Shown here one piece after another: positions 24,609-47,365 of a stretch of 64,000 nucleotides of DNA (its first letter is position 1; each line of letters starts with the position of its first letter). Under the pieces are notes generated by a model. The model saw only the letters and a list, made by a program, of their open reading frames with translations. It did no database searches and had not been told where the DNA came from. Position numbers and translations under genes: made by a program. Source of the DNA: Acidimicrobiia bacterium (lineage in GTDB: Bacteria; Actinomycetota; Acidimicrobiia; Acidimicrobiales; CATQHL01); assembly GCA_009840735.1 (NCBI GenBank), contig VXNF01000102.1, forward strand, positions 5,038 through 69,037. The letters are read 5' to 3'.

Positions 24609-25517
24609 TCAGCGCGGCGACGGGGCGGAGCCGGGGACGATTCCCTCCGGCAGGCCCATCACGTGGGCGGCCACGTCCTCGGGCCTCGCCAGCCACACGT
24701 CGTCGCGCCGCGCCGCGATGTGCTCGAGGGCGGCGCGCAGGTGCTTCAGCCGGAAAGGCTGGCCGACCAGGAAGGTGTGCAGCGAGACGGAGTACACCAG
24801 CGGCTGCTCGTCGGCGAGGCGGAGCATCTCGTCGAACTGGTCCATCATCATCTCCGCGAAGACCGGCGCGGAGTGATGCCGCCGCACGTAGACACCCACA
24901 TCGTTCAGTTCCAGCGGGTACGGGATGCTCAACAGCGGCCCCGACCGTGTCCTGAGCCAGATCGGCTGGTCGTCGCACGGCGACTGCAGCGTGTACTGGT
25001 AACCGGCCTCCACGAGCAGGTCGCTAGTGACCGCCGACTCGGCGATGTAGGGGCCCATCCAGCCGCTCGGGCGGCGGCCCCAGTGCTGTGTGATGACCTC
25101 GGTGGTCTCGGCGATGAGGCGGGCCTCGTCGGGCTCCCAGAGGCCGTCGCTGCGTTCGGAGTTCGTCCGCCCGTGGGCGATGATCTCGTCACCGCGCTCG
25201 ACGATCTTGGCCACGATGTCGGGGTAGAGCTCCATCACCGTCGAGTTGACGTTGTGCGACCACGGGATGTCCAACTCGTCGAATGTGTCGAACATGCGCC
25301 AGATGCCGATCCGGTTGCCGTAGTCCCGCCAGGCGTAGCTCCGGTAGTCGGCCGGCGCGCTCACCGCCGAATCGTTGAGACCCAGACCCGCCTTGTAGGC
25401 GAAGTGCTCGACGTTGTTCGACAGGCAGACGGCCAGACGGGTGCCGTTGGGCCAGTCGTAGGGAACGCGGTCCTTGATCGACACGTAGTCGTAGCGGTCG
25501 TTCGCCGGGAGCTTCAT
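24609..25517 (-). CDS. Polysaccharide deacetylase (CE4) family protein, PuuE-like cyclic amide hydrolase group
   Basis: WPNG-RLAV, WRDYGNRIG-WR, EIIAHG, P-GWMGP, DDQP, IPY-ELND, SLH-F-GQPFR. Confidence 0.87.
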   Translation of the reverse strand: MKLPANDRYDYVSIKDRVPYDWPNGTRLAVCLSNNVEHFAYKAGLGLNDSAVSAPADYRSYAWRDYGNRIGIWRMFDTFDELDIPWSHNVNSTVMELYPDIVAKIVERGDEIIAHGRTNSERSDGLWEPDEARLIAETTEVITQHWGRRPSGWMGPYIAESAVTSDLLVEAGYQYTLQSPCDDQPIWLRTRSGPLLSIPYPLELNDVGVYVRRHHSAPVFAEMMMDQFDEMLRLADEQPLVYSVSLHTFLVGQPFRLKHLRAALEHIAARRDDVWLARPEDVAAHVMGLPEGIVPGSAPSPR

Positions 25518-26338
25518 GCGAAGAACTCCTCGAAGTACTCGGCGATCTCATCGGCGGCGGTCGTGAAGAGCTCCAGCACGTCGGTCAGGTCCGGCCGCGA
25601 GACGACGCGGGTGTGAGCCGGCAGCAACGGCATCGCCCGAGCTGTCTGGGCGGTCAGATCGTCGTGGACGTCGACTACCAGGAACGGTTGGCGGATCTTC
25701 GAGACGAACTCGCCGGTCGGATGGTCGAAGACGGCGTGGTACGTCATCCAGGGATCGGGCTGCGCCCCCAGATGATCCATCATGAACTCGTGCAGCAGGT
25801 CCGGTGACCAGGCGCGCGAGCGCTCAGCGGCGCCCCCGAACCCACCGTCACGCCACCACCGCCAGTACCAGTCGAGATGGGTGCCGTCGGCCTCGGGCCT
25901 GGGTTCGTGCAGGTAGTTGTCCTTGTACTGGGGGATCTCCTCCGGCGAGAACACCGGCACGGTCACCACGGCGATCCGCCGGATCCGGTCCGGGTAGCGC
26001 ACCGCCAGATCGATCGCCTCGCACGAACCGGTGTGGACACCGGCGACGTCGAACTGGCCGACTCCCATGGCGTCGAGCGCCTCCAGGGTTGCGTCGGCGT
26101 AGTCACCCAGCGACAGCCCGGCCCGCGGGTGGTCCGAGCACCCGAACCCCAGCCGGTCCGGCACAATCACCCGCCTCCGGGCCGACAGCCGCGGCGTGAT
26201 GTGGCGGTACATGCGACCCGACGAGAGGCCCATGTGCAGCAGCACGAGCGGTGGCTCACCCTCGCCGTTGCTGCGCACGTGCAGATGGCCGTGACGGGTG
26301 CTGATGAGCTTGCGGCTCGTTCCCTCCGCTTCCAGCAT
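25514..26338 (-). CDS. Alpha/beta-hydrolase-fold protein with a non-canonical nucleophile elbow (G-V-H-T-G)
   Basis: PPLVLLH, PDRLGFGCSD, AGVHTG, YPDRIRR. Start MLEAE estimated. Confidence 0.85.
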   Translation of the reverse strand: MLEAEGTSRKLISTRHGHLHVRSNGEGEPPLVLLHMGLSSGRMYRHITPRLSARRRVIVPDRLGFGCSDHPRAGLSLGDYADATLEALDAMGVGQFDVAGVHTGSCEAIDLAVRYPDRIRRIAVVTVPVFSPEEIPQYKDNYLHEPRPEADGTHLDWYWRWWRDGGFGGAAERSRAWSPDLLHEFMMDHLGAQPDPWMTYHAVFDHPTGEFVSKIRQPFLVVDVHDDLTAQTARAMPLLPAHTRVVSRPDLTDVLELFTTAADEIAEYFEEFFA

Positions 26339-26435
26339 CGTGATCCCCTCCGCCGCAGGCCCCTCCGCCGCCGGCATCCGGTGCGCGGGGTACTGTACCC
26401 CACGTCCTGCACCCGGACTGTTGCTAGGGGGTCCA

Positions 26436-27260
26436 ATGAGGCGAGGGTACGCCGACACCGCGGTCGGGCAGGTTCACTACGTCGAGGCCGGCGAGGGCCC
26501 CCCGTTGATCCTGCTGCACCAGACCGCCAGCAGTTCGGTCATGTGGCTGCGGGCGATCCCCTACTTCGCCGAGCGCTACCACACGATCGCCATGGACACG
26601 CCCGGGTTCGGGATGTCCGACCATCCCGCCGAGCAACCGACCGAGGGCATTCCGTACTACTCCCAGGCCGTCATCGGCCTGCTGGACCATTTGGGGTACC
26701 GGCAGGCGAACATCGTCGGGTTCCACACCGGCGCCAGCATCGCGGTGGACGTGGCGGCCCACTCTCCCGAGCGGGTCAAATCGCTCGTGATCGCACCGAT
26801 CCTCGCTGTGGACGACCAGGCCGAGCGCGACGACTGGCTGTCCCGTGACGACTTGAAGTCGGGCTGGGTGCCCGACGGCAAGGGCGAGTTCCTGGCGAAC
26901 GACATCCTGGACTACGTCGCTCACTTCGCCACCGAGAACGACGGCGAGACATACCTCCGAGAGCTCATCGCCAAGCTGCAGGCCGGGCCGAACTACTGGT
27001 GGACGTACGTGGCGGTCGTGCAGTACGACCACTACGCGGCGTACCCCAAGCTGCAGTGCCCGGTACTGGTCCTCAACGTGACCGAGGAGGTTCTGTACTC
27101 CTACACCACCAAGGCGCACGCCGCGATCCCCCACAGCGAGTATGTGGAGATCCCCGGCCCCGAGCCCAACATCCGCGGCTGGGTGGCAGTCGTGCCGGAG
27201 TTCCCGAAGGAATTCTCCGACGCCGTGATGTCCTTCGTGGACCGCGTCGAGGGAGAGTGA
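26436..27260 (+). CDS. Alpha/beta-hydrolase-fold protein with a non-canonical nucleophile elbow (G-F-H-T-G)
   Basis: GQVHYVEAGEGPPLILLH, DTPGFGMSD, VGFHTG, PERVKSL. Confidence 0.87.
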   Translation: MRRGYADTAVGQVHYVEAGEGPPLILLHQTASSSVMWLRAIPYFAERYHTIAMDTPGFGMSDHPAEQPTEGIPYYSQAVIGLLDHLGYRQANIVGFHTGASIAVDVAAHSPERVKSLVIAPILAVDDQAERDDWLSRDDLKSGWVPDGKGEFLANDILDYVAHFATENDGETYLRELIAKLQAGPNYWWTYVAVVQYDHYAAYPKLQCPVLVLNVTEEVLYSYTTKAHAAIPHSEYVEIPGPEPNIRGWVAVVPEFPKEFSDAVMSFVDRVEGE

Positions 27261-27289
27261 CCAGTCCGGCGCGGGTGCCCTGACCGCGC

Positions 27290-28834
27290 ATGACAGCCGA
27301 ACGATCCCACTGGTGGGTGACCGCAGCAGGAGCACTCACCAGCCTCGTCCTGAATCTCGACCAGGCGACGGTGCTGCTGGGGGCGCCGACCATCGCCGAG
27401 GCGCTCGGCGCCGACCTCTCGGCAACCCAGTGGATGTTCTCGGGATTCCTCCTTCCGTTGGCGGCACTGGTCATGCTGGGGGGCGGCCTGACGGACCGCT
27501 TCGGCGCCTCGCTGATGCTCCGCTCCGGACTGACGCTCTTCATTGCCGGCACCGTCGGCAGCGCCTTCGCCGGCAGCATGGGACTGTTGATCGGCCTGCG
27601 GGCGGTGTCGGGCACCGGAGCCGCGCTGGCCTTCCCGGCCTCGGTGGCGCTGCTGCGTGTGCACCTGCCGGCCGGGCGGCCGCTCAACATTGCGCTGGGC
27701 CTGTGGTTCACCGGCGCGCTCGGGGGTTCGGCGATCGGCCCCCTCATCGGCGGGCTGCTGCTGCGGGCCTGGCCGTGGTGGTCGATCTTCTGGCTGTCGT
27801 GCGGCTTCGCACTGGCCGCCCTTGTACCCGTGCTGATCGGAGTGCGGGAGGATCCGGCACCCTCGGCTGCAACCGACCTTCGCGTGCTGCCCAGTCTTGC
27901 GGGCGCGGTCGGACTGGCCCTGCTGATCTGGGGCCTCATCAGCGCCGGCCAGGAGGGCTGGGGCTCCGGCTCGGTGTTGTGGCGGATGCTCGGAGGACTC
28001 GGGGTGCTGGCGCTCATGACAGCGGCCCTGCGCCGCGGGGCCGGCTCCCGCCCCGAGGTGGGGATCGACCGCCGGCGCCTCGCCGCGGGCCTCATCATCA
28101 TGCTGCTGGCGATCGTCTCGGTGGTCGGGACGATGTTCTTCGTGATCACCTACCTGCAGGGCATACTCGGTTTCTCGCCCCTGGTGGCGGGTGCCGCGTT
28201 CATGCCCTTCGGCGTCGTGGCCGCCCTGATCTCCCCCTTCGCCATGCGCCTGCTGGAGAGGTTCGGCTTCGGCCGCATGCTGGGATCGGCCGTGCTGTTG
28301 GAGGTGGCCGGCCTGGTGCTGGTCTCCCGGATGACCCCCACATCGCCCTACCCCGTCGTCGGCATCGCCCTGGCGCTGGTTGGGGGCGCCATGTCGGTGT
28401 TCCCGGCGGTCTCGCTTCATCTGGCGCTCAGCGCCGCGCCAGCCTCCCGCGGCGGGATCGTCTCGGGCGCGCACACCGTGGCGATCCAGCTCGGCCAACT
28501 CCTCTCGATCGCCATCATCGGCTCGCTGGTCGCCTCGCGGGTCGGCGGCATCTACCGCTCGCTGCTGGGAGACGCCGGTCTCGACCCGGATGTGCCCAGC
28601 GAGATCACCACCGACCTGGCGTTGGGGCGCAGCGCCGCGCCCCCGGGCGTCTCGGAGGCGGACGGCCTGCTCTACAAGATCGCCGGCGAGAAGGCGTTCA
28701 CCACCGCCGTGGGCCAGGCCGCCCTGATCGTGCTGGCCGCCATCGCCGTGGTGGCCGTCGCCGCGCTGGCCGTCCTACGGCCGAAGCGCGACCACTCCCC
28801 GGCGGTCAGCCGGACGGAGCCGTCAACTCCCTGA
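27290..28834 (+). CDS. MFS transporter, 14-TMS (DHA2/EmrB-like)
   Basis: LD-T-V-PTI, GGLTDRFG motif A, GPLIGGLL, YLQGILG-SPL-AG. Confidence 0.88.
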   Translation: MTAERSHWWVTAAGALTSLVLNLDQATVLLGAPTIAEALGADLSATQWMFSGFLLPLAALVMLGGGLTDRFGASLMLRSGLTLFIAGTVGSAFAGSMGLLIGLRAVSGTGAALAFPASVALLRVHLPAGRPLNIALGLWFTGALGGSAIGPLIGGLLLRAWPWWSIFWLSCGFALAALVPVLIGVREDPAPSAATDLRVLPSLAGAVGLALLIWGLISAGQEGWGSGSVLWRMLGGLGVLALMTAALRRGAGSRPEVGIDRRRLAAGLIIMLLAIVSVVGTMFFVITYLQGILGFSPLVAGAAFMPFGVVAALISPFAMRLLERFGFGRMLGSAVLLEVAGLVLVSRMTPTSPYPVVGIALALVGGAMSVFPAVSLHLALSAAPASRGGIVSGAHTVAIQLGQLLSIAIIGSLVASRVGGIYRSLLGDAGLDPDVPSEITTDLALGRSAAPPGVSEADGLLYKIAGEKAFTTAVGQAALIVLAAIAVVAVAALAVLRPKRDHSPAVSRTEPSTP

Positions 28835-29519
28835 GCCGATCGATGACCGCTTCCGTCGACATGACGTCGGCGTACTTGGCGTCGAGGTCGAACAGCCCCA
28901 CGTCGTGGCTGGCGCCGATGCGGTCGTAGACGCACTCCTCAGCCACGATCGTCCGGAAGTTGTAGGAGAAGGCATCCACGGCCGTGGCCCGGATGCAGCC
29001 ACTGGTCGTGCAGCCGACGAGGATCACCGTGTCCACACCGAAGTCCACGAGGTAGCTCACCAGGGCCGTGCCGAAGAAGGCGCTGGCGTGGCGCTTGGGC
29101 AACAGCACGTCGCCCTCCTCCGGAGCCACCTCGGCCACGAACTCGTAGCCCCGGTCGCTAATGGATGTGATCTGCGGGTTGATGCTGCCGAAGCGCCCCG
29201 CGTCGACGGCCTTCTTGGGTGCCACGTACGGATAGACGATCGGAATTCCGGCCGACCGCGCGGCGCCGATGAGCCGGGCGATGTGGGGGATCGCCGCCCA
29301 CGCCCTGTGGCCGCAGGCCGTCGGGTACATGGTGGTGATGGCCTCGCGGATCGGCGCCGGGCGGTCGCCGGCTGTGCGGTACTGCACGTCGATGACCAGC
29401 AGCGCGGGACGTTCGCCGAAACCCGAGGGACCGCCGAATCCCGACAGCTCGTACACATCGAGGTCATCTCCGGGGATCGACGCCAGCCACGACCGCCGGC
29501 CCTCTGGCTGCCCGCTCAT
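28806..29519 (-). CDS. Isochorismatase-family cysteine hydrolase (N-carbamoylsarcosine/maleamate amidohydrolase-like)
   Basis: PALLVIDVQ, K-ASAFFGT, GCTTSGCIRATAVDA, DLDAKYADV. Confidence 0.9.
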   Translation of the reverse strand: MSGQPEGRRSWLASIPGDDLDVYELSGFGGPSGFGERPALLVIDVQYRTAGDRPAPIREAITTMYPTACGHRAWAAIPHIARLIGAARSAGIPIVYPYVAPKKAVDAGRFGSINPQITSISDRGYEFVAEVAPEEGDVLLPKRHASAFFGTALVSYLVDFGVDTVILVGCTTSGCIRATAVDAFSYNFRTIVAEECVYDRIGASHDVGLFDLDAKYADVMSTEAVIDRLRELTAPSG

Positions 29520-29531
29520 GAGTTCTCCCCC

Positions 29532-29611
29532 TTGCTCGGTGGATTCATTGCTTGGTGGATTCAGTGCTCAGTCGTTTCAGTGCTCAGTCGGTTCATTGCT
29601 CAGTCGGTTCT
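29532..29611. repeat. 16-bp tandem repeat x5 spanning the lyase stop codon and the intergenic gap
   Basis: ttgctcggtggattca/ttgcttggtggattca/gtgctcagtcgtttca/gtgctcagtcggttca/ttgctcagtcggttct. Confidence 0.85.
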
Positions 29612-30518
29612 CGAGGTCGTCGAACCGCTCCAGATCCACGAGGGCCTGACGCTGCGCCCATCCGAGCACCCGGTCGCCTAACTCGACGGAGTCGCCGTGC
29701 TCGTACAGGTGCGCCAGGGCGTCCTCACCGGCCTTGAGCATGACCCGCAGCAGCAGGTTGGCATGCAGGATCAGCCGGTAACCCATCTCCGCCAGTTCCT
29801 CGCGGGGCAGCTGCGGGGTCTTGCCGCCCTCCACGACGTTGAGCAGCACGGGCGTGCCCCCCAACTCGGCGGGAATCCGGCGCATCTCCTCCACCGTGCG
29901 CGGCGCCTCCACGAACAGGACGTCGGCGCCGGCCTCTGCGTAGAGGCGCGCCCGGCGGATCGCCTCGTCGAAGCCCAGCACCGAGCGGGCGTCGGTCCGG
30001 GCGATCAGGACCAGGTCGGGATCGGCGCGGGCGCTGAGCGCGGCGTCGATCCGGGAGATCATCTCTCCCGGCGCCACGAGTCGCTGCCCGGCGAAGTGCC
30101 CGCACCGCTTCGGCATTGCCTGATCCTCGATCGCCACGGCGGCGGCGCCCGCCCTCTCCAGCAGGTGAACTGTGCGCATGACCGACAGCGGCCCGCCGAA
30201 GCCACAGTCGGCGTCCACGATGACCGGAATGGCAACGGCGTCGCAGATTCTGGCGGCGCCCTCCACCACCTCGGTCATCGAGACCAAACCGATGTCCGGC
30301 AGCCCGAACTGTGAGTTGGCGAGCCCCGCCCCGGTCACGAAGCAGCAGTCGAAGCCTGCCCGCTCCACGAGGCGGGCAGACAGGGCGTTCACCGCGCCGA
30401 CCACAATCGTGGCCTGCGGACGCGCCAGCAGAAACCGCAGGGCGGCACTACTCGACGGGATCGGCGGACCTCCGAGACCGTGGGGGATTCTCGAGCCGCC
30501 GCCCTCGCCGCGGACCAT
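29577..30518 (-). CDS. Isocitrate lyase/PEP mutase family protein (PrpB/2,3-dimethylmalate lyase-like)
   Basis: GLPDIGL, DADCGFG, IEDQ-PKRCGH, IARTDA, GADVLFVEA, NVVEGGKTP. Start estimated. Confidence 0.9.
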   Translation of the reverse strand: MVRGEGGGSRIPHGLGGPPIPSSSAALRFLLARPQATIVVGAVNALSARLVERAGFDCCFVTGAGLANSQFGLPDIGLVSMTEVVEGAARICDAVAIPVIVDADCGFGGPLSVMRTVHLLERAGAAAVAIEDQAMPKRCGHFAGQRLVAPGEMISRIDAALSARADPDLVLIARTDARSVLGFDEAIRRARLYAEAGADVLFVEAPRTVEEMRRIPAELGGTPVLLNVVEGGKTPQLPREELAEMGYRLILHANLLLRVMLKAGEDALAHLYEHGDSVELGDRVLGWAQRQALVDLERFDDLENRLSNEPTEH

Positions 30519-30620: not shown

Positions 30621-31640
30621 GTGAGGGCGCGGCAATGGGCGTGGCTCATCGTAAAGCGCGTCCTCTTCATGGCCCCGATCCTATTCGGCGTGGCGACAGC
30701 GACTTTCTTCCTCACCCGGCTGGCCGGCGGCGACCCGGCCTATCTGGTCGCCGGCTCCTTCGCCACCGAGGAGGTGATCGCTAGCGTCCGAGCCCAGCTC
30801 GGCACGGACCGCCCGCTGGGCGAGCAGTACGGCGAATTCCTCAGCGACACCATCCGGGGCGATCTCGGCACGTCACTGTTCACCGACCGCCCCGTCACCA
30901 CCGACCTGGCCGACCGACTGCCCGCCACCTTGCAGCTAGTCACCCTCGCCCTGGCCTTCTCCCTGGTCTTCGGGCTGGCGTTGGGCAGCTACGCGGCCCA
31001 CCGGCGGGGCAGGGCAGGCGACAGAGCAGTCCGCTTCGGCAGCTTCTCGGCGCTCTCGGTGCCCGACTTTTGGCTAGGGCTGGTGCTGCTGTTCGTCTTC
31101 TTCTTCAAACTCGACATCGCGCCGGGCCCCACGGGCCAGATCGCAGCGGGCGGACCGGCGCCCCAAGACGTCACCGGCGCCGTGCTTTTCGACGCGATGA
31201 TCACCCTGAACGGCGCGGCCTTCAAAGCGTCGCTGCATCAAATCTGGCTGCCGCTCATGACGATGGTGCTCATCTTCACCGCACCCATCGCCCGCCTGGC
31301 CCGCTCGGCGGCCATCGAGTCGCTGACTTCGGACTCCATTCTCTTCGGACGGGCCTGCGGGCTGTCGAACCGCAAGCTCTGGACCTACGCCACCCGCGGC
31401 GCCCTGCCCCCAGTGGTGACCTTCGTGGGGATCCTCTTCAGCGTGCTGCTGGGAAGCGCCGTGCTGGTCGAGACGGTGTTCTCCTGGGGGGGTGCAGCCC
31501 AGTACGCCGTTAACGCCATCCGCCAGAGCGACTTCCCGGCCGTGCAGGGGTTCGTGCTGGTTGCCGGGGCGCTGTCGGTGGCCATCTTCTTCGTGGTCGA
31601 CCTGCTCTACCGGGTCATCGACCCCCGGGTGCGGCTGTGA
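30621..31640 (+). CDS. Peptide/nickel-family ABC permease (DppB-like)
   Basis: GDLGTS, RLPATLQL, SVPDFWLG, VETVFSWGG, DFPAVQG, DPRVR. Confidence 0.92.
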   Translation: MRARQWAWLIVKRVLFMAPILFGVATATFFLTRLAGGDPAYLVAGSFATEEVIASVRAQLGTDRPLGEQYGEFLSDTIRGDLGTSLFTDRPVTTDLADRLPATLQLVTLALAFSLVFGLALGSYAAHRRGRAGDRAVRFGSFSALSVPDFWLGLVLLFVFFFKLDIAPGPTGQIAAGGPAPQDVTGAVLFDAMITLNGAAFKASLHQIWLPLMTMVLIFTAPIARLARSAAIESLTSDSILFGRACGLSNRKLWTYATRGALPPVVTFVGILFSVLLGSAVLVETVFSWGGAAQYAVNAIRQSDFPAVQGFVLVAGALSVAIFFVVDLLYRVIDPRVRL

Positions 31641-32551
31641 CCCCCCCTCCGGAGACGGACGCCACCCCCGCGACCGCCAGCGGCACCGCGGCGGACTTCG
31701 TCCTGCCGCGGCACGCCGACAGCTTCGGCCGGAGGCTGCGGCGGCGCCTCAACCCTCCGCTGCTGTGGGGCGCGTTCATCATCTTCGTGCTCGCGCTGGG
31801 CGCTTACGTGGTGCCGGCGATCTGGCAGTTCGGCGCCGAGGCCGCCAACCCGCGCGAGGCGCTGCTGCCGCCCAGCGCCCGGCACCCCTTCGGGACCGAC
31901 CGCTCGGGCTTCGACATCTTCGTGCGGGTGTTTCACGCCCCACGGATCGACTTGACCATCGTGGTGCTCGGCGTCGGCCTCGGGGCGCTGATCGGCATCG
32001 TCCTGGGAGTCGCCGCCGGCTTCTCCCGTCGCCTCATGGGCGAGTTCTCGATGCGCCTCGCCGACATCGTGCAGGCCTTCCCGCTGCTGATCCTGGCCAT
32101 CGCCCTAGTGGCCCTCGGCGGCAACAACCTGACCAACGTGGTGTTCGTGCTGGCCTTCGTGAACGCGCCGGTGTTCTTGCGTCTGGTCCGCAGCCGCGTG
32201 CTGACCGTGCGCGAGCAGCGCTACATCGCCGCCGCGGCGGCGCTGGGCAACTCCACGACGCGTCTCGTGTTCCGCCATGTGCTGCCGAACTCGCTCGGAC
32301 CCGCCGTCGTGCAGTTCGGCATCTCAATGGGCTACGGGATCCTCACCCTGGCGGGCTTGGCCTACCTGGGCGTGGGAGTGCAGGTCCCGACGCCCGAATG
32401 GGGTTCGATGATCCTCGGAGGCGCCAGCTACATCACAACCGGCCAGTGGTGGATATCGATCTTCCCGGGCATCTTCCTGGCCATCGCCGTGTTCGCATTC
32501 AACCTGCTCAGCGAGGGGATCGAGCAGGCTCGGGAAGTGCATCTGCGGTGA
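31637..32551 (+). CDS. Peptide/nickel-family ABC permease (DppC-like)
   Basis: HPFGTD, AFPLLILAI, HVLPN, LAYLGVG-PTPEWG, WWISIFPG. Confidence 0.92.
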   Translation: MTPPPETDATPATASGTAADFVLPRHADSFGRRLRRRLNPPLLWGAFIIFVLALGAYVVPAIWQFGAEAANPREALLPPSARHPFGTDRSGFDIFVRVFHAPRIDLTIVVLGVGLGALIGIVLGVAAGFSRRLMGEFSMRLADIVQAFPLLILAIALVALGGNNLTNVVFVLAFVNAPVFLRLVRSRVLTVREQRYIAAAAALGNSTTRLVFRHVLPNSLGPAVVQFGISMGYGILTLAGLAYLGVGVQVPTPEWGSMILGGASYITTGQWWISIFPGIFLAIAVFAFNLLSEGIEQAREVHLR

Positions 32552-38072: not shown

Positions 38073-38079
38073 GGAGCGA

Positions 38080-39032: not shown

Positions 39033-41084
39033 ATGGCAGACGTATGGGTGGGAGTCGACACGGGTGGCACGTTCACCGACCTCTTGGCCTTCAACGCCGA
39101 CGGCCAGCTGTTCGCCGCCAAGACGCCCTCGACGCCTGATGACGACACCGAGGCGTTCCTGACGGGGCTCGCCTCCCTGCAGGCCTCGGCGGACTTCGAG
39201 CCGGGCGACGTCGTCGGGCTGCACTACGGCACGACGGTCGCCCTCAACGCGGTTCTCCAGAAGCGCTGGCCGTCGCTGGGGCTGATCGTCACCGACGGCT
39301 ACCGCGAGATGATCGAGATCGCCCGCCAGACGGTCCCCGGCGACTGGGGCGCCATCTACACCTGGGTCAAGCCGCCCCGAGTCGTGCCCCTGGAGAACGT
39401 CCGACAGGTTCGCGGGCGCATCACCCACACCGGCGAGGTGCTCGAGGAGATGAGCGCCGGCGACGTGCGCTCGGCGGCGGCGTTCTTCAAGGAGAAGGGC
39501 ATCAACGCCGTCGCTCTGTGCTTCATGCACAGCTACCTGGATCCCTCCCACGAGCAGCGGGCGCGCGACGTGTTCCGCGAGATCCACCCCGACTGCTTCC
39601 TGACGATCTCCTCGGACGTCCTCCCGGAGTTTCGCGAGTACGAGCGGGCCATGACGACGTGCCTGAACGCGGCGCTGATGCCGCTGGTCACCGACTACCT
39701 CGACAGCCTCGACAGCCGCCTCAAGGGGGCCGGCTACTCCGTTCCGCTGCTGCTCATGCGCTCCTCAGGGGGTCTCTCCCAGAGCGACCGCGTCGTGGAG
39801 CAACCCGCCACCATCGCCTATTCCGGGCCCAGCGCCGGCGTCCTGGGCATGGCCTGGCTAGCTGAGCAGATCGGCGAGGACAAGGTGCTCACCTACGACA
39901 TGGGGGGAACGTCCACCGACGTGGCGCTCGTCGAGGACGGGCGACCCCTGCTGACCACCGAGGGGCTGCTGGACATCTACCCCATGGGCATGCCCTCGAT
40001 CGACATCGTGTCCATCGGCGCCGGCGGAGGGTCGATCGCCTCGCTGGGCACCGGCGATCGCCTCCGGGTCGGTCCCGAGAGCGCCGGCGCCGACCCCGGG
40101 CCGGTGTGCTACGGCAATGGCGGTACCCAGCCCACCGTCACCGACGCCAACCTGGTCCTCGGGCGCATCCCCGACTACCTGCTCGGCGGCGACATGCCGC
40201 TGAACGCCGAAGCGGCACGGGAGGCGGTCGGCACCATGGGCGGGAAGCTGGGCCTCGGGCCTGAGGAGTTCGCCCACGGCATCCTGCAGCTGGCCGCCGC
40301 CCGCATGTCCGCGGCGGTGCGCCAGGTCTCCATCGCCCGAGGCCGCGACCCGCGCGAGTACGCGCTGTTCGCCTTCGGCGGGGCCGGTCCGCTGCACGCC
40401 GCCGAGTTGGCCGACCAACTAGGAATCCGCAGGATCGTGATTCCGCCGCGTCCCGGTCTGGGCTCCTGCCTGGGCCTGCTGGCGGCGGACATCCAGGCCA
40501 GCGCGGTCCAGACGGTCAACACGCGTGCCGAGAGCATCTCCCCCGGCAGGTTCGGCGACACGTTCGCCGAACTCGAAGCGAAGGTGGTCGACGACATCTG
40601 TGGCCAAGGCATCGCCGCCCCCTCTACGGAGCGATTCGCCGACCTGTGCTATGTGGGCATGGCCACGGAATTGACCGTCCCGGTGCCGGACGGGCCGGTC
40701 TCCGCCGCCGGCCTCGACGCCGCCGTCGAGGCGTTCCACGCCGAGCACCAGCGCACCTACGGGTACCACTACGCCGGCGAGCAGCCCGTGGAGTTCGTCA
40801 ACCTGCGCGTGCGGGGAACCGGCCCGCTGCCCCGCATCGAGCTGGCCGAGACCACTCCCCGGGAGGGTTCGGTGACAGACGCCGCCCTCGGAGACCGCGA
40901 CGTGTACTACGGACCCCGGCACGGCAAGCAGACGACCCGCCTCTACGACCGGGACCGGCTGGCGGTCGGCCACGAGGTGGCGGGCCCGGCGATCATCGTG
41001 GAGTACGACTCCACCGTGCTGGTGCCGCCTGCCGCCAACACCCGGGTGGACGCCCTCGGCAACCTGCTCATCCACCTGGGCTGA
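39033..41084 (+). CDS. hyuA: Hydantoinase/oxoprolinase A subunit (ATP-dependent cyclic amide hydrolase)
   Basis: GVDTGGTFTD, GTTVALNA, EFREYER, SGPSAG, DMGGTSTD, IGAGGGS, GPESAGADPGP, FGGAGPLH. Confidence 0.93.
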   Translation: MADVWVGVDTGGTFTDLLAFNADGQLFAAKTPSTPDDDTEAFLTGLASLQASADFEPGDVVGLHYGTTVALNAVLQKRWPSLGLIVTDGYREMIEIARQTVPGDWGAIYTWVKPPRVVPLENVRQVRGRITHTGEVLEEMSAGDVRSAAAFFKEKGINAVALCFMHSYLDPSHEQRARDVFREIHPDCFLTISSDVLPEFREYERAMTTCLNAALMPLVTDYLDSLDSRLKGAGYSVPLLLMRSSGGLSQSDRVVEQPATIAYSGPSAGVLGMAWLAEQIGEDKVLTYDMGGTSTDVALVEDGRPLLTTEGLLDIYPMGMPSIDIVSIGAGGGSIASLGTGDRLRVGPESAGADPGPVCYGNGGTQPTVTDANLVLGRIPDYLLGGDMPLNAEAAREAVGTMGGKLGLGPEEFAHGILQLAAARMSAAVRQVSIARGRDPREYALFAFGGAGPLHAAELADQLGIRRIVIPPRPGLGSCLGLLAADIQASAVQTVNTRAESISPGRFGDTFAELEAKVVDDICGQGIAAPSTERFADLCYVGMATELTVPVPDGPVSAAGLDAAVEAFHAEHQRTYGYHYAGEQPVEFVNLRVRGTGPLPRIELAETTPREGSVTDAALGDRDVYYGPRHGKQTTRLYDRDRLAVGHEVAGPAIIVEYDSTVLVPPAANTRVDALGNLLIHLG

Positions 41085-41126: not shown

Positions 41127-43016
41127 ATGTCACCTACCGGCAACGGATCATCCAACGGCGACAGCTCGGAGGCGACCACCGAGTTCGAGCCGATCCTCTT
41201 CGAGATCATCGAGGGCGCCATCGAGTCGGCGCGCCGCGAGATGGAGATACAGGTGGAGCGAACCGCCCGCTCCACGATCGTGCGCGAGCAGCACGACCAC
41301 CGGTCGGGCATCTTCGACTCGCACGGCAACAGCGTGACGGCCCTGTCGTTCGCCTCGGTGCCGACGCCGATCATGAACAAGTTCGGGGCCAACATCCACG
41401 CCGACGACGTATTCCTCTACAACGACCCCTACAAGTCCGACGGGGGCATCACCCACCTCGGCGACATGTGCATCACGCGCCCGGTCTTCGCCGACGGCCA
41501 GATCGTGGCCTACGTGCAGGTGTTCGGCCACGTCAACGACATCGGCGGCCTGACTCCGGGCAGCGTCCCGCTCACGGCCTTCGAGATCTTCCAAGAGGGC
41601 TTCGTCGTCCCGCCGGTGAAGCTCTACGATCGCGGGCAGCTCAACGAGGCGCTCTTCGAGACCATCTTGAACAACTCGCGTTTTGCCGACGACCTGCGCG
41701 CCGACATCGACGCCTTCGTGAACGCCTGCGGCATCGGCGTCGTGCGGGTGCAGGAGCTGTGCGAGCGCTACGGATCTGAGGCGCTGGCGCAGACGTTCAA
41801 GGGCCTGCTCGACCGTTGCGCCCGGAGCCTGCGCGAGACGGTGCTGCCGATGATCCCCGACGGCTCGTACACCTTCGAGGACTTTTGCGAGTACGTGGAC
41901 GTGCAGCCCCGCGAGCCGCGCCACTACGTCAAGCTGCGGGCCACGATGACCAAGACGCCCGACGGCATCAACTTCGACTTCTCCGGCACCGACCCACAGA
42001 TCAAGGGATCGCTCAACTGGCCGGCGAACGACCGGTACTACGCCAAGTCGCTGGGAACGCTGTTCATCGCCTTCGCGCCGGACATGGTCATCAACGACGG
42101 CGTGAACGAGGTGATCACCTGCACGCTGCCCGAACGCACCGTGCTGAGCCCCGAGTGGCCCGCCGCCTGCGGCTGGCGCACGTTCCCGCTGCTGCGCATC
42201 TTGGACCTGGGCCTGGGCATCCTGGCCAAGGCCTCGGGCGGGTTCGTGCCGGCGCCGTCGGAGTCCATCTCCTCCTACGGGCTGTTCGGCCACAACGCCG
42301 ACGGCGACTACTTCCTGCTGCGGGAGATCACCGGCGCGGGCTCCGGCGCCCGCCCGTTCGCCGACGGGGCCGACACCGTGGACGTGGCACCGGAATCGAG
42401 GAACATGCCGGCGGAGTTCGCCGAGACGAACTTCCCGGTCCGCATCGTCCGGTTGGGCCTGCGTCAAGACTCCGGCGGGGCGGGGACGTTCCGGGGGGGC
42501 CTCGGCTACTTCAAGGACATCGAGATCCTCGTCGACGGGGAGATGCTCATCCACTCCGACCGGGCCACGCTGCAGCCGTGGGGGGTCAACGGCGGCCGCG
42601 CCGGGTTGGGCTCGGTCTGGCTCCTGAACCCCGACACTGCCGACGAGACGGTGCTGCCGGGCAAGTCCGATTCGATCCCCGTGCGCAAAGGCGACATCCT
42701 GCGGGTGCTCAGCCCCGGAGGCGGCGGCTGGGGCGATCCTCTGAACCGGGACCGCGAGGCGGTGCTGCTCGACGTGCGGCGGGGCCTGGTGTCGCCCGAG
42801 AGCGCTCGCGACGACTACGGCGTGCTGTTCCTGCCCACCGAGGATGACTACGAGCTCCAACTCGACGCCGAGGCAACCGAGGCCCAGCGGGCCGCCATCC
42901 GCGCCGAGCGGCCGCCGCTGAAGCTGTTCGACCGCGGCGAGAACTTCTATCGGCTCGTCGAGGAGGGAAAGATCACCCTGACGAGCAGTGACGAGGCCCT
43001 GGCCCCGGCGGGCTGA
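41127..43016 (+). CDS. hyuB: Hydantoinase/oxoprolinase B subunit
   Basis: RTARS-IVRE-D, NDPY-THLGD, GHVNDIGG, FDFSGTD, DSGGAGTFRGGLG, PGGGGWGDP. Confidence 0.93.
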   Translation: MSPTGNGSSNGDSSEATTEFEPILFEIIEGAIESARREMEIQVERTARSTIVREQHDHRSGIFDSHGNSVTALSFASVPTPIMNKFGANIHADDVFLYNDPYKSDGGITHLGDMCITRPVFADGQIVAYVQVFGHVNDIGGLTPGSVPLTAFEIFQEGFVVPPVKLYDRGQLNEALFETILNNSRFADDLRADIDAFVNACGIGVVRVQELCERYGSEALAQTFKGLLDRCARSLRETVLPMIPDGSYTFEDFCEYVDVQPREPRHYVKLRATMTKTPDGINFDFSGTDPQIKGSLNWPANDRYYAKSLGTLFIAFAPDMVINDGVNEVITCTLPERTVLSPEWPAACGWRTFPLLRILDLGLGILAKASGGFVPAPSESISSYGLFGHNADGDYFLLREITGAGSGARPFADGADTVDVAPESRNMPAEFAETNFPVRIVRLGLRQDSGGAGTFRGGLGYFKDIEILVDGEMLIHSDRATLQPWGVNGGRAGLGSVWLLNPDTADETVLPGKSDSIPVRKGDILRVLSPGGGGWGDPLNRDREAVLLDVRRGLVSPESARDDYGVLFLPTEDDYELQLDAEATEAQRAAIRAERPPLKLFDRGENFYRLVEEGKITLTSSDEALAPAG

Positions 43017-43921
43017 TGCTGCGCGCCGCCGCCGTTCAGATCTGCCCGGTTGACGGGGACGCTGGCGCCACCCTCGACAAGGCCGAGCAGTGGCTCGCCA
43101 CTGCCGGCGAGGGCGGCGTCAAGCTGGCGGTCCTCCCCGAGGGCTACCTGCCGGGCTTCGCGGAGATCCGCGAGGCCAAAGCCTCGGGCAACCCCGGCCG
43201 GCTGGCAGAGGTGTTCGCGGCCTTCGACACGGTTCCCGGCACCGCCACCGACCGTGTGGGGGCCATCGCCCGCCGCTACGGCATGGTGGTCGCCTTCGGG
43301 ATGCTGGCGCGGGCCGCCGAGGGTGAGCGGCCCACCAACGTGTCGGTGCTGATCGACGAGAGCGGCGCCGTCGCCAACATCCATCGCAAGATCCACCTCA
43401 CCCCCACCATCGAGTCGCCCGACTTCACGCCGGGCGACTCGCTCGCCGTGGCCGACACGGCCGCTGGCTGCGTAGGCAACATGATCTGCGCCGACTTCTC
43501 CCTCCCCGAGACCACTCGAATCCTGGCGATCAAGGGTGCCCGGATAATCTGCGGCTCCCTGGCGGGCTTCTACGTGCCCGGCCCCGACGCCGAGCAGGTC
43601 GTGCTCCACCTCTTCGAGCACTCGCACACATCGCCCACCCGCGCCATCGACAACTCCGTGTACCTCGTGCTCGCCAACATGGTCGGGCGCAGCGGCGACC
43701 TGGAGTTTTTCGGCAAGAGCCGAATCATCAGCCCCGAGGGGCGCATCCTGGCCGAGGGCGGCGAAGGCGTCGACTGCGAGGAGCTAGTCGTCGCCGACAT
43801 CGACCCCGACATCGACCGAGGGGACATGCCTTTCCGACTCATCGACCGCCGCCGTCCCGACCTCTACGAGGACATCCTGCTGCCGAATCCCGACGTCGGG
43901 GCGGTCGAATGGCGGAGCTAG
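43016..43921 (+). CDS. Carbon-nitrogen hydrolase (nitrilase/amidase/carbamoylase) family protein
   Basis: Glu-Lys-Cys triad contexts LPEG, HRKIH, ICAD; G-SRIISPEG. Confidence 0.9.
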   Translation: MLRAAAVQICPVDGDAGATLDKAEQWLATAGEGGVKLAVLPEGYLPGFAEIREAKASGNPGRLAEVFAAFDTVPGTATDRVGAIARRYGMVVAFGMLARAAEGERPTNVSVLIDESGAVANIHRKIHLTPTIESPDFTPGDSLAVADTAAGCVGNMICADFSLPETTRILAIKGARIICGSLAGFYVPGPDAEQVVLHLFEHSHTSPTRAIDNSVYLVLANMVGRSGDLEFFGKSRIISPEGRILAEGGEGVDCEELVVADIDPDIDRGDMPFRLIDRRRPDLYEDILLPNPDVGAVEWRS

Positions 43922-45840
43922 CCGAGGCTGTCACCCACCCACTAGACCCGCTGACCGCGAGCGAGATCGAGCGGGCCGCGGCAATCATCCGCCGCCAGCG
44001 CCCCGGCATGGATCGGTTGCGCTTCCCGCTGCTGATGCTGGCCGAGCCGGCGAAACAGGAGGTCTACGCGTTCCGGGCAGGCGATCCGATCCCCCGCCGG
44101 GCACGCGCCACCTTGCTGGACCGCGCCGACGGCGCAGCCTATGAGGCCGTCGTGTCGCTCGAGGAGGACCGGCTCGAGTCCTGGCGGGCACTGCCGGGGG
44201 CGCAGCCTCCGATCCTCATGGAAGAGTTCGCCGCCGTCGATGCGCTCGTGAAGAGCGACGAGCGTTGGCTCGCCGCCCTGGCTCGACGGGGCATCACCGA
44301 CGCGGACCTCGTGCAGGTGGACCTCTGGTCGGTGGGCGACTATCCGATCCAAGGCGTCGACTCCGCTCGCCGCCTCGTGCGGGCGGCGTCGTACCTGCGG
44401 AATCGGCCCAGCGACAATGGCTACGCAAAGCCCATCGAGAACGTCGTCGCCATCGTGGACCTCAACGAGAACCGGGTGCTCCAGATCCTCGACGGCGACG
44501 TCGTCCCGCTCCCCCCCGAGTCGGGCAACTACGACGCCGCCTCGGTGGGCGAACTGCGCACAGACCTGATGCCGCTCGACATTCTCCAGCCCGAGGGCCC
44601 CAGTTTCTCCATCGAGGGGTGCCTGCTGAGTTGGCAGCGCTGGAGCATGCGGGTGACCATGCACCCCACCGACGGGCTCGTCCTGCATCAGGTGGCCTAC
44701 GACGACGGCGAGCGGCGCCGCCCGATCCTGTACCGCGCCGCCCTGTCGGAGATGGTCGTGCCCTACGGCGACGGCACCGACGCCTTCCACTGGCGCAACG
44801 CGTTCGACGCGGGCGAGTACGGAATGGGCCGGAACATGGGCTCGTTGAGCTTGGGCTGCGACTGTCTCGGCGAGGTCCGCTACCTCGACGCGGTAGTGGC
44901 GGGCGACGACGGCGAACCCATGCTGTGCCCGAACGTGGTCTGCATCCACGAGGAGGACTACTCAATCCTCTGGAAGCACTACGACTTGAGCACCGGCTCC
45001 AGCGAGGTGCGGCGCTCCCGCCGGCTCGTCGTCTCCTCCATCGCCACCCTGGGCAACTACGAGTACGGCTTCTACTGGTACTTCTATCAGGACGGCCACA
45101 TCGAGTTCGAGATCAAGCTCACCGGCGTGGTGCAGACGCGCGCCCTGCCGCCGGGCGGCAGCGACGACTACGGCACCATCGTCAGCACCGATCTCAGCGC
45201 TGTGAACCACCAGCACATCTTCAACATGCGCCTCGACTTCGACGTGGACGGCACCGGGAACTCCGTCGTGGAGGTGGACACGGTGCCGCTGCCCCCCGGC
45301 GAGGCCAACCCGCACCGCAACGCCTTCGCCGCCCAGGAGACGCTGCTGGAGACCGAGCAGCAGGCACAGCGCATCATCGACCCCCTGAAGTCCCGCTGCT
45401 GGAAGATCGTGAACCCGACCAAGCTCAACCGCTTCGGCGAACCGGTGGCCTTCAAGCTGCTCCCCGAGGCGAGCTCGCTCATGCTGGCGGCGGCGGACTC
45501 GCGGGTGGCGGCACGGGCCCGCTTCGCCCAGAACCACCTCTGGGTCACGCCGTATGACCCCAACGAGATGCACGCGGCCGGCGACTACCCCAACCAGAGC
45601 ACCGGCGAGGACGGGCTGCCCCGCTGGACCGCGCAAGACCGCGGCATCAGCGACACCGACGTGGTGCTGTGGCACACGTTCGGGGTCTCGCACATCCCCC
45701 GGCCCGAGGACTGGCCGATCATGCCCGTGGAGCGGATCGGCTTCCAGTTGCTGCCGGTGGGGTTCTTCGATCGCAACCCGTCGCTGGACGTGGCGCCACC
45801 GCAGCCCGCCTGCCATCCCGGCGGCGAGCCCAACGAGTGA
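43909..45840 (+). CDS. Copper/TPQ-dependent primary amine oxidase
   Basis: HPLDPLT, FDAGEYG, LGCDC, TLGNYEY (TPQ consensus), HQH and H-PRPEDWPIMP copper ligands. No signal peptide. Confidence 0.95.
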   Translation: MAELAEAVTHPLDPLTASEIERAAAIIRRQRPGMDRLRFPLLMLAEPAKQEVYAFRAGDPIPRRARATLLDRADGAAYEAVVSLEEDRLESWRALPGAQPPILMEEFAAVDALVKSDERWLAALARRGITDADLVQVDLWSVGDYPIQGVDSARRLVRAASYLRNRPSDNGYAKPIENVVAIVDLNENRVLQILDGDVVPLPPESGNYDAASVGELRTDLMPLDILQPEGPSFSIEGCLLSWQRWSMRVTMHPTDGLVLHQVAYDDGERRRPILYRAALSEMVVPYGDGTDAFHWRNAFDAGEYGMGRNMGSLSLGCDCLGEVRYLDAVVAGDDGEPMLCPNVVCIHEEDYSILWKHYDLSTGSSEVRRSRRLVVSSIATLGNYEYGFYWYFYQDGHIEFEIKLTGVVQTRALPPGGSDDYGTIVSTDLSAVNHQHIFNMRLDFDVDGTGNSVVEVDTVPLPPGEANPHRNAFAAQETLLETEQQAQRIIDPLKSRCWKIVNPTKLNRFGEPVAFKLLPEASSLMLAAADSRVAARARFAQNHLWVTPYDPNEMHAAGDYPNQSTGEDGLPRWTAQDRGISDTDVVLWHTFGVSHIPRPEDWPIMPVERIGFQLLPVGFFDRNPSLDVAPPQPACHPGGEPNE

Positions 45841-45973
45841 GCCAGCCGCGCATGTACGGCAACTTTGGAGCTGCACAGGAACTCGACTGACTGGTCTGGC
45901 CTGGGGTAGGACTGGCGCAGCGCGGGCGCACTGATTCGGCTAGAAACTTGACCCGGCTAGGGAGGGAAACAGC

Positions 45974-46885
45974 ATGGACCATCGCAACCGTGACGATCCG
46001 CAGTTCTTCGACGTGTGGACGCTGCCGTGGGAGACGGCGCCCGGCGCCGAATTCCTGGGTGGCGTCGAGGCGCGGACCATGTCCGAGCGCCCCGAGACGG
46101 GCGCCGGCACCTACATGGTGAAGATGCCGCCTGGTTGGTCCCACACCGAGCAGGCCGACGAGGGGGCGCTGGAGATCTTCGTCGTGGAGGGAGACCTAAC
46201 CGCCAACGGCCGCACCGTCGGCGCCGGCGGCTACGCGGCGGTGCCGAAGGGCTGCGGCCCGCTGGAACTCGCCACCGAAGGGGGCTTCCAGGCCTACGCC
46301 TTCTGGAACCCCGTCTGGGCCGATGGCTACTACTACGACAACCAGCCCTTCGTGGCCAAGGTGTGGGAGATCGACTGGATCCTCACCGAGATGCCCGGTC
46401 TGCGCCACGGGATCATGCACAAGTCGCTGCGCTGGCCCGACCCGGCCGAAGGGCTGTTCCACGGCGGCCCCAGCGGGATGCTGCGCTTCATCCAGATGGC
46501 GCCCGGCTTCGGCGAGCCCCGCCAGGAGGTCCACTGGGACACCTGGGAGGAGATGGTCTGGCTGGCCGGCGACCTGCTCATGCCCGAGCGGGGCATGCAC
46601 GCCCCCGGATCGTTCCTCGCCAATCCCGCGGGGCTCAAGCACGGTCCGCTGCTCACCGCACGCGGCAGCCTGCTCATGCTCCACTGCGAGGCGCCCATGG
46701 GCGCGCAGTTCTACGAGCTGACCAACGACGACGGCACCGACGTCGGCGCGCAGCTGGTCGCAGACTTCCACGACGGCGAGTCGTGGCTGGAGGCACCCCG
46801 GCACACCGACTGGGACAAGCGCCGCGAGCAGCCCATCTATCCCAGCACGACGCCGGTCTACGCCGGCCCCGACGGCGACGCCTAA
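45974..46885 (+). CDS. Bicupin-like protein (DUF4437/ChrR-like cupin), paralog of 38080-38985
   Basis: EIFVVEGDL, KSLRWPDP, HGGPSG, QEVHWDTWEEMVWLAGD, NP-HGPLLT. GGAGG RBS. Confidence 0.72.
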   Translation: MDHRNRDDPQFFDVWTLPWETAPGAEFLGGVEARTMSERPETGAGTYMVKMPPGWSHTEQADEGALEIFVVEGDLTANGRTVGAGGYAAVPKGCGPLELATEGGFQAYAFWNPVWADGYYYDNQPFVAKVWEIDWILTEMPGLRHGIMHKSLRWPDPAEGLFHGGPSGMLRFIQMAPGFGEPRQEVHWDTWEEMVWLAGDLLMPERGMHAPGSFLANPAGLKHGPLLTARGSLLMLHCEAPMGAQFYELTNDDGTDVGAQLVADFHDGESWLEAPRHTDWDKRREQPIYPSTTPVYAGPDGDA

Positions 46886-46918
46886 GACAACCGCTCGAGC
46901 AGCCGAGGAGGGCACGAC

Positions 46919-47365
46919 ATGGCGGAGTTGAGCAACAGCGACCTGGTCCGCAAGACCTACGAGGCGTTCAACAGCCGCGACTTCGAGGCGGCGATCAGCT
47001 GCGTCCACGAGGACCTGGACTGGACCGAAGTGGCCAGCGGGCGGCGCTACCGGGGCCCAGAGGGGATGCTGCGGGAGTACCGCGAGTGGGCGCGGGCCTT
47101 CCCCGACGGCGCCGCGGAGATCACCAACCTCATCGAGGGCGGCGAGTGGGTGGTCGTGGAGTTCACGGTGCGGGGCACCAACACAGGTCCGATGATGGGC
47201 CCCGACGGCGAGATTCCTCCCACGAACGCCAAGATCGAGTTGCAGTCCTGCGACGTGCTGCGGGTTGTGGACGGCCGCGTCGCCGGCGGACGCAGCTACT
47301 TCGACCTCAACACGATCACGCGCCAAGTCGCCGGGGACGCACCGGATCAGACGCCGCTGCTGTGA
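46919..47365 (+). CDS. SnoaL/NTF2-like (ester cyclase family) protein
   Basis: YEAFN-RD, AFPD, VVVEF-RGTNTGP, IPPT, R-YFD. Confidence 0.85.
   Translation: MAELSNSDLVRKTYEAFNSRDFEAAISCVHEDLDWTEVASGRRYRGPEGMLREYREWARAFPDGAAEITNLIEGGEWVVVEFTVRGTNTGPMMGPDGEIPPTNAKIELQSCDVLRVVDGRVAGGRSYFDLNTITRQVAGDAPDQTPLL

Follow-up and report, generated by a model that had tools for sequence, protein, structure and literature searches.

Related pathways and their comparison with the cluster

Nicotinate fermentation ends with a LeuCD-like dimethylmaleate hydratase and a 2,3-dimethylmalate lyase of the isocitrate lyase (ICL) type, the aerobic maleamate pathway uses NicF and NicE, and in the caprolactamase (CapAB) route, as in the similar NmpAB pathway for N-methylpyrrolidone, a lactam ring is opened. 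Plant chlorophyll breakdown stops at linear tetrapyrroles, and maleimides are typical products of tetrapyrrole oxidation. Features reminiscent of the nicotinate, maleamate and lactam routes are found in a cluster of 20 genes at positions 24609 to 47365 of the window, a 64,000-nucleotide stretch of contig VXNF01000102.1 from an Acidimicrobiia bacterium whose lineage is typically sponge-associated. Its genome (2.7 Mb, 84% complete) is labelled G000, other G labels denote relatives' genomes and L labels denote fetched loci or stretches. The cluster is a real, conserved and apparently undescribed catabolic system that combines known chemistry with three uncharacterised families. Our leading interpretation, held with a little more doubt than belief, is that it imports and degrades an alkyl-substituted five-membered nitrogen ring of the pyrrolinone/maleimide type, possibly released by the decay of chlorophyll, haem or bilins, via an alkyl-maleamate.

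With the nicotinate and maleamate pathways the cluster shares an ICL-family lyase with the KRCGH motif and a NicF-like amidase, and related clusters contain LeuCD or maleate-isomerase-like genes. However, a ring hydroxylase, the NicX dioxygenase, a Ser-type deformylase, NicE and a hydratase are absent from it, whereas a methyltransferase pair, bicupins and an amine oxidase are added. As in the caprolactamase system, HyuAB stands beside an amine-oxidising enzyme, an arrangement suited to lactam opening followed by deamination, but the two subunits score 494 (CapA) and 216 (CapB) bits against a cut-off of 1000 (NF050156/NF050157) and many additional enzymes accompany them. Membership of the methylcitrate cycle is likewise rejected, the lyase scoring 275 bits against 354 for PrpB (TIGR02317) and having no prpC or prpD neighbours.

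The original prediction had drawn an analogy with creatinine/N-methylhydantoin degradation, which proves weak, gene context favouring instead a maleamate/alkylmalate lower pathway. The best PDB names for HyuB (N-methylhydantoinase 7hk5, 5e-76, then 6yra, 4e-55) and for the isochorismatase-family protein (N-carbamoylsarcosine amidohydrolase, among matches to 26st, 4l07, 3ot4 and 1nba) do recall that route, but the matches are distant, neither creatinine deaminase nor sarcosine oxidase/dehydrogenase is encoded among the 20 genes, and a C-C lyase is present. The CE4 and bicupin folds are similarly reminiscent of allantoin/ureide degradation (PuuE and ureidoglycine aminohydrolase), but the CE4 protein scores 120 bits against 424.6 for the PuuE allantoinase (TIGR03212) and the closest fold to the bicupin is that of the uncharacterised Npun_F5605. 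These resemblances, including a Z-score of 19.2 between bicupin 2 and (S)-ureidoglycine aminohydrolase, are what would be expected if the cluster scavenged nitrogen by serial hydrolysis from a poly-nitrogen heterocycle (hydantoin, cyclic ureide, purine/deazapurine or imidazole type), the lyase handling the residual carbon; a CE4 relative at 51% identity in Sulfitobacter, alongside dihydropyrimidinase, carbamoylase, racemase and HyuAB, points the same way. We nevertheless consider such scavenging improbable, given that the supporting matches are all distant or under family cut-offs, that uricase and allantoate amidohydrolase are missing from the cluster along with the creatinine enzymes, and that the recurrent pairing of a hydratase with an alkylmalate lyase in related clusters indicates a branched carbon skeleton. 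As had been supposed, no characterised pathway matches the cluster: none is described in the open-access literature searched, subscription journals lying mostly outside that search.

Conservation and organisation of the cluster

In each of 8 relatives from two genera, picked for possessing the methyltransferase, the 20 genes keep an identical order; the methyltransferases of the Acidimicrobiales/Acidimicrobiia relatives are 85-93% identical. When five markers (methyltransferase, amine oxidase, cupins, CE4 and cluster-type ICL) were traced across 20 family genomes, 11 had all of them at one place, 6 that are 91-94% complete lacked them all, and 3 fragmentary genomes had pieces of the set. The fixed order and the all-or-none presence place the grouping beyond chance, and the 20 genes are a real conserved unit that is kept or lost as a block in this family of Acidimicrobiia. 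Beyond the family the unit is rare: 20 genomes from other families yielded no full-length orthologue, and the small-protein and methyltransferase profiles each recovered 2 of 400 genomes, from the rest of the class and from the phylum respectively, with G053 among both. Because contigs of 40-62% GC (L039, L065, L066, L068, L071, L073), several of them bearing TARA names, show the same gene order, a role specific to a host alkaloid is unlikely; the cyclic amide/amine part of the original prediction stands. Co-conservation in other genomes, on which the prediction had been staked beforehand, is thus observed and, together with the lack of a matching described pathway, supports an uptake-plus-catabolism unit for a cyclic amide or amine.

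An accidental gathering of unrelated catabolic genes, or else a pathway already characterised, is a very improbable explanation of the locus. The many hydantoinase paralogues of G000 (8 HyuA and 7 HyuB matches including the cluster's own, the cluster pair being 26-39% identical to the others) and the few subscription journals covered by the literature search leave some room for it, but the constancy of gene order at 40-70% GC, the all-or-none presence, the recurrence in another phylum and the failed membership tests speak against it; its chance half is already largely refuted. The CE4, isochorismatase, ICL, methyltransferase, small-protein, amine oxidase and SnoaL genes have no close paralogue elsewhere in G000.

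The count of 19 genes, 15 of them on the plus strand, given in the original prediction is revised to 20 and 16 (Table 1). Pfam and NCBIfam scans placed all the families named in it where it had them, and its tight spacing is borne out, with 15 of the 19 internal junctions at 57 bp or less or overlapping. The other four measure 94 bp (between the divergent genes for the alpha/beta-fold proteins ABH1 and ABH2), about 180 bp (between the divergent ICL and DppB genes, both starts being approximate), 149 bp and 133 bp, and this layout suggests four transcription units, namely ABH1-CE4 (-), ABH2-MFS (+), ICL-isochorismatase (-) and DppB to SnoaL (+). A Pfam scan matched none of the 20 proteins to a regulator family, again as predicted. 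Scans of positions 24000-43000 for promoters (no sigma-70-like sites; shuffle mean 0.7) and terminators (5 terminator-like sites; shuffle mean 5.5) were uninformative. GC content is 67-71% along the cluster, matching the flanks. The class III CoA transferase gene just beyond the cluster adjoins it in all 5 same-genus relatives and in none of the 3 from the sister genus, and has a 69% match within the related cluster of G377.

Table 1. Genes of the cluster and the adjoining CoA transferase gene, in window coordinates
Feature	Position	Strand	Remarks
CE4/PuuE-like hydrolase	24609..25517	-	PF01522; candidate cyclic imide hydrolase
ABH1, alpha/beta-fold protein, His at nucleophile elbow (GVHTG)	25514..26341	-	PF00561
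ABH2, alpha/beta-fold protein, His at nucleophile elbow (GFHTG)	26436..27260	+
Major facilitator superfamily (MFS) transporter, EmrB/QacA exporter type	27290..28834	+	best TcmA 151 bits, under cut-off
Isochorismatase-family cysteine amidase, NicF / N-carbamoylsarcosine amidase group	28806..29519	-	PF00857
ICL-superfamily C-C lyase, candidate alkylmalate lyase	29577..30455	-	start approximate
Dpp-type ATP-binding cassette (ABC) importer, four genes	30636..34406	+
Importer permeases	30636-31640, 31637-32551	+	first start approximate
Importer ATPases	32548-33372, 33369-34406	+
Family-5 solute-binding lipoprotein, Ala-rich linker	34556..36592	+	PF00496; lipobox-like LLTAAC
Class I S-adenosylmethionine (SAM) methyltransferase-fold protein, uncharacterised N-terminal helical domain	36641..37768	+
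98-aa helical protein, putative methyltransferase partner	37776..38072	+	no Pfam family
DUF4437-type bicupin 1	38080..38985	+	E-x-H-x4-E-E...H motif
HyuA-like ATP-dependent cyclic amidase subunit	39033..41084	+
HyuB-like subunit	41127..43016	+
Nitrilase-superfamily amidase/carbamoylase	43016..43921	+	C-A-D at catalytic Cys
Copper/topaquinone (TPQ) primary-amine oxidase	43909..45840	+
DUF4437-type bicupin 2	45974..46885	+	predicted metal site E185/H187/E192-193/H223, C-terminal barrel
SnoaL/NTF2-fold protein	46919..47365	+	PF07366
Class III CoA transferase	47456..48736	-	just beyond the span originally given; probable accessory member in the same genus

Enzymes with recognisable chemistry

Catalytic motifs are intact in the amine oxidase, nitrilase, isochorismatase, ICL and methyltransferase proteins. 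The predicted amine oxidase scores 926 bits against a cut-off of 651 (NF008559), has the Arthrobacter-type enzyme as its best PDB match, and shows the TPQ consensus TLGNYEY (Tyr384), three copper ligands (His434/436/595) and the base Asp300, features that together identify it as a probable copper/TPQ enzyme. The nitrilase-type protein has the residues E42/K125/C158 and the isochorismatase-family protein D44/K142/C175. The ICL-family lyase, whose best PDB match is the petal death protein (5e-60), falls under the PrpB, CPEP-mutase and phosphoenolpyruvate (PEP)-mutase cut-offs, and its ICL fold and KRCGH catalytic loop predict an enzyme of the petal death protein/dimethylmalate lyase type. The solute-binding protein has PDB matches too remote to name a ligand, the best of which bears the name heme-binding protein A (E 6.5e-26), and the closest plasmid relatives of HyuB (Rhodococcus, 41-45%) are located in unrelated contexts.

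The EmrB/QacA-type MFS protein and the SnoaL, cupin and methyltransferase folds, which are common among tailoring enzymes, could also be read as a biosynthetic or detoxify-and-export locus in which a small molecule is modified by the methyltransferase, SnoaL, cupins and ABHs and leaves the cell through the MFS protein. This is very unlikely, since a complete importer stands beside five hydrolase/oxidase genes, no enzyme that would form a scaffold is encoded, and related clusters contain TonB receptors and dehydrogenases typical of catabolism. Phosphonate biosynthesis in particular is contradicted by a PEP mutase score of 124 bits against a cut-off of 320 (TIGR02320) and by KRCGH, which is a lyase motif.

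Three uncharacterised families

The methyltransferase, cupin and SnoaL members had originally been set aside as fitting no recognised pathway; the methyltransferase pair, the His-elbow ABHs and the bicupins are now seen to be the signature of a wider cluster family. The methyltransferase has a predicted class I SAM-dependent fold, its model (pLDDT 89.8) displaying a Rossmann-like core together with motif I and an acidic motif II; fold searches returned generic matches only (best Z 16.1, tied), none of the solved structures being a specific relative. Among 67 matches to the methyltransferase family, 61 have the gene for the 98-aa protein no more than 200 bp away, as opposed to 0 of 7 generic methyltransferases, in a set whose rows are redundant and include 27 that trained the profile; the small gene is adjacent for 10 of 13 distant matches outside the training set. 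Of the six exceptions, three are at contig ends, one is cut by a stretch boundary (the partner being adjacent in another scan), one has its partner 2.3 kb off and one has an unrecognised 108-aa neighbour. This small family, which comprises 1,097 clusters (50% identity) at E<=0.001, is a candidate partner of the methyltransferase.

In ABH1 and ABH2 a His replaces the Ser/Asp/Cys nucleophile at the elbow, that of ABH2 aligning with the nucleophile position of fluoroacetate dehalogenase, and the canonical C-terminal His, which three Ser-type rows of the alignment retain, is missing. For these two reasons they are unlikely to be classical alpha/beta hydrolases. The G-x-H-T-G motif is present in 16 of 20 aligned ABH neighbours, and two-domain ABH fusions are found elsewhere.

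In both bicupins, which are 41% identical to each other, the C-terminal barrel carries a conserved E-x-H-x4-E...H set. The closest folds to the model of bicupin 2 (pLDDT 93.9) are Npun_F5605 (2qdr; Z 21.5, rmsd 2.9 over 232 aligned residues), DR1152 (19.7) and ureidoglycine aminohydrolase (4e2q). The match to Npun_F5605 is also seen in sequence (E 1e-10), with PF14499 barely over its cut-off, and both proteins are accordingly predicted to be DUF4437 bicupins.

The wider cluster family

The methyltransferase, its small partner, the His-elbow ABHs and the bicupins are the signature of a wider family of clusters in Actinomycetota and Alphaproteobacteria. Reshuffled relatives in soil Actinobacteria and sphingomonads reuse the methyltransferase pair, ABHs, DUF4437 bicupins, HyuAB, the NicF-like amidase and the ICL-family lyase, and are usually joined by a hydratase. 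In soil actinobacterial and metagenomic loci the methyltransferase pair is found with His-elbow ABHs, ICL, isochorismatase, MmgE/PrpD, amidohydrolase, aldehyde dehydrogenase, LLM and racemase-like genes; DUF1838, DUF1330 and EthD-like genes are also present in related loci. In cultured Alphaproteobacteria the gene set is plasmid-borne. Encoded on N. resinovorum pSA1 are six methyltransferase paralogues, HyuAB, a nitrilase, an ICL gene (45%) directly followed by an isochorismatase gene (50%), and a second ICL gene after LeuCD. A cluster common to pTomTYG65b (Sphingobium sp. TomTYG65) and pJE1 comprises, on the former, ICL, two LeuCD pairs, two CE4 genes, isochorismatase, HMGL, CoA transferase, ABHs, cupin and the methyltransferase pair, with HyuB farther round the circle, and Antarctobacter pSMS3-3 combines AcnA, NTF2, a dihydroorotase-like enzyme, isochorismatase and the methyltransferase pair.

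In both midpoint-rooted FastTree trees the window's ICL and isochorismatase proteins form a group with their counterparts from L046, L047 and N. resinovorum L096, and the pair therefore travels together across phyla. LeuCD stands beside an ICL-family gene in both pTomTYG65b and pSA1, and the hydratase families represented in related clusters are LeuCD, AcnA, MmgE/PrpD and, in a second cluster of the same genus, a fused aconitase/LeuCD. In G053, G377 and G519 a CoA transferase with a CitE/HMGL lyase takes the place of the ICL-type lyase. On the whole, gene context and general biochemistry suggest a shared end point in which the amide of a substituted maleate would be hydrated and then cleaved at a C-C bond. 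The dihydroorotase-like amidohydrolase, present in 6 related clusters, and CE4, present in pTomTYG65b and the window, never occur together over 23 stretches, and this mutual exclusion suggests that they are interchangeable imide hydrolases.

Several observations were made on individual relatives. The pSA1 genes belong to an unannotated catabolic island of about 110 kb (NZ_CP017076.1, ~1.03-1.14 Mb; L096-L098), which further encodes flavin amine oxidases, FAD oxidases, TonB receptors, DUF1838, DUF1330 and HapK. The second cluster of the genus (G007 L123, G015 L124) contains an amidase, a two-domain ABH, a family-5 binding protein, ICL, isochorismatase, HyuAB, an enoyl-CoA hydratase, the fused aconitase/LeuCD and a flavin oxidoreductase. 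Its ICL, found in 12 of 17 same-genus genomes and not in G000 or the sister genus, was considered as a housekeeping PrpB and rejected on account of this location in a HyuAB/isochorismatase/aconitase cluster. At ~140-160 kb of G377:C9 (L104:17716-19999, L105:1-904) the methyltransferase pair lies between microcompartment shell genes (BMC domain, EutN and a probable trimer), the partner having an N-terminal extension that resembles encapsulation-peptide helices; HyuAB, ABH, cupin, HMGL and the CoA transferase matching that of the window lie nearby, and the locus is possibly an undescribed microcompartment type. L048, L051 and L049 are possibly mis-binned, being titled Melainabacteria with 70-73% GC and actinobacterial-type genes or, in one case, Dormiibacterota with outer-membrane receptors.

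Proposed route and the tetrapyrrole lead

From the genes, motifs, folds, synteny and co-occurrence we infer every reaction and the substrate as follows. The Dpp importer would take up an alkylated pyrrolinone/maleimide-type compound. HyuAB could open a lactam at the expense of ATP, the copper amine oxidase would convert the freed CH2-NH2 group to an aldehyde, and the CE4 enzyme may open imides. The nitrilase-type and NicF-type amidases would then release ammonia to give an alkyl-maleate, whose hydration would yield an alkyl-malate, to be cleaved by the ICL-family lyase to pyruvate and a short acid. The methyltransferase with its partner, the His-elbow ABHs, the bicupins and SnoaL may process the ring itself or its side chains, one of them possibly being the missing hydratase, and the MFS protein might export a by-product.

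Oxidised pyrroles are the best substrate lead because in G001 the cluster abuts a locus for a homologue of red chlorophyll catabolite reductase (RCCR) whose enzymes match those of methyltransferase clusters. RCCR acts downstream of pheophorbide a oxygenase (PAO), and RCCR-related sequences have been reported in non-photosynthetic bacteria; no cluster such as the present one is described in the relevant passages of that source (PMC10151467). Homologues (PF06405 over cut-off; the G018 protein versus Arabidopsis RCCR, E 5e-8) are present in 5 of 21 family genomes, being next to the cluster in G001, elsewhere in the genome in G018-G020, and in the non-carrier G011. As would be reminiscent of the plant PAO/RCCR system, the gene is beside a Rieske oxygenase gene in 3 of 3 annotated loci (G001, G018, G011), which also contain CitE, nitrilase, IclR, CoA transferase, cyclase and MmgE/PrpD genes and end with HyuBA in G001 and G018 and with amidohydrolase and HMGL in G011. 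The G001 locus is extended by isochorismatase, FAD monooxygenase and Amdase-like genes and ends ~260 bp from the cluster's CE4 gene. Matches in the G053/G519 methyltransferase clusters stand at 49-62% for its MmgE, cyclase, CoA transferase and IclR proteins, and in G519 at 52% for its FAD monooxygenase and 48% for its Amdase-like protein; CitE reaches 35-38%, and the FAD monooxygenase just 36% in G053. The RCCR/Rieske locus is a candidate bacterial chlorin/bilin catabolism locus; the cluster and this locus have a common lower-pathway logic but do not appear to be co-inherited. The locus (G001:C206:2.7-33.7 kb, L125 and L126; G018 L127; G011 L128; G020 L129) is conserved and also encodes DUF3891 and several Pfam-less proteins, one of which by eye resembles a second RCCR-type protein.

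Several observations weigh against a pyrrole-derived substrate and the route as drawn. Searches for RCCR gave no match in G000 or in 7 further genomes with the cluster, several of which are near-closed, and G011, which has no cluster, possesses the gene. A link of the gene set to CpcT/RCCR was considered, but CpeT was not found in five carriers (pSA1, pTomTYG65b, G053, G377, G519), nor was RCCR, in a search that gave no positive-control match, and RCCR was found solely in the family genomes listed above. The Rieske protein of the RCCR locus has no PaO-domain match at E 0.05. No hydratase of a known family, aldehyde dehydrogenase or ring oxygenase is encoded among the 20 genes, and the single aconitase and single MmgE/PrpD of G000 lie elsewhere, without cluster-type neighbours. 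Maleamate chemistry also ends pyridine pathways, and the bicupins and CE4 resemble ureide-degrading enzymes. Relative to plant PAO/RCCR breakdown, RCCR is absent from the window and was not found in G000, the relatives' Rieske protein lacks the PaO domain, and the proposed bacterial route would continue to small acids.

Alternatively, the cluster could degrade an aminomethyl-pyridine or -pyrimidine (a vitamin B6/B1-type fragment or an N-methylated pyridinium) through the maleamate pathway, with methylation possibly activating the ring. The NicF-like amidase fits this, an amine oxidase suits an aminomethyl side chain, and maleate-isomerase-like, FAD-monooxygenase, LLM and aldehyde-dehydrogenase genes occur in related clusters, as does an NMT1/THI5-type binding protein in G519. 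It is nonetheless quite unlikely, in that the 20 genes include neither a monooxygenase nor a molybdenum hydroxylase or 2,5-dihydroxypyridine dioxygenase, the ABHs lack the Ser nucleophile required of a deformylase, and the link to the RCCR locus would be left unexplained.

Flanking genes and insertions

In low-GC relatives (L068:11216-12390, L073:9281-10452) an HbpS-like gene of a haem-degrading family and a short-chain dehydrogenase/reductase (SDR) gene are inserted after the amine oxidase gene, and L071 has two open reading frames (ORFs) of similar size at that place. The sister genus (L016:5484-8074, L018:8195-9214, L021:10949-11947) has an Amidohydro_2 gene and an MFS gene in the flank in 3 of 3 cases and a diaminopentanoate-dehydrogenase-like gene after SnoaL in 2 of 3. 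In G007 (L024:8403-10240) cupin 2 and SnoaL are separated by an inserted stretch of ~2 kb that contains an unrelated ORF. Elsewhere in the window, positions 19437-24426 encode a glycine-betaine-type ABC transporter, whose binding protein has a long Ala-rich linker and which does not neighbour the cluster in 8 relatives; 11905-16369 encode a molybdopterin hydroxylase large subunit, a small Rieske protein and an FAH-family protein. GC content falls to 62% at 8001-10234, where a 93-aa ORF (9953-10234, -) by eye resembles a RelE/HigB-type addiction-module toxin.

Implications

To our knowledge, the completion by bacterial heterotrophs of the breakdown of tetrapyrrole and other N-heterocyclic organic matter is poorly described. 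It is conceivable, if rather unlikely, that the cluster is the downstream half of a bacterial pathway mineralising pyrrole fragments of chlorophyll, haem or bilins, fed by an RCCR/Rieske locus of its own cell or of neighbouring cells and using a two-subunit methyltransferase-fold enzyme, ABHs whose chemistry is His-based instead of nucleophilic, and DUF4437 metallo-bicupins, with one relative appearing to package the pair in a microcompartment. The cluster family supplies concrete genes and two cultured carriers that are non-pathogenic, N. resinovorum SA1 and Sphingobium sp. TomTYG65, for identification of the substrate. Whatever this substrate is, its identification would assign functions to three widespread uncharacterised families, namely the methyltransferase/small-partner pair, the His-elbow alpha/beta-folds and DUF4437.

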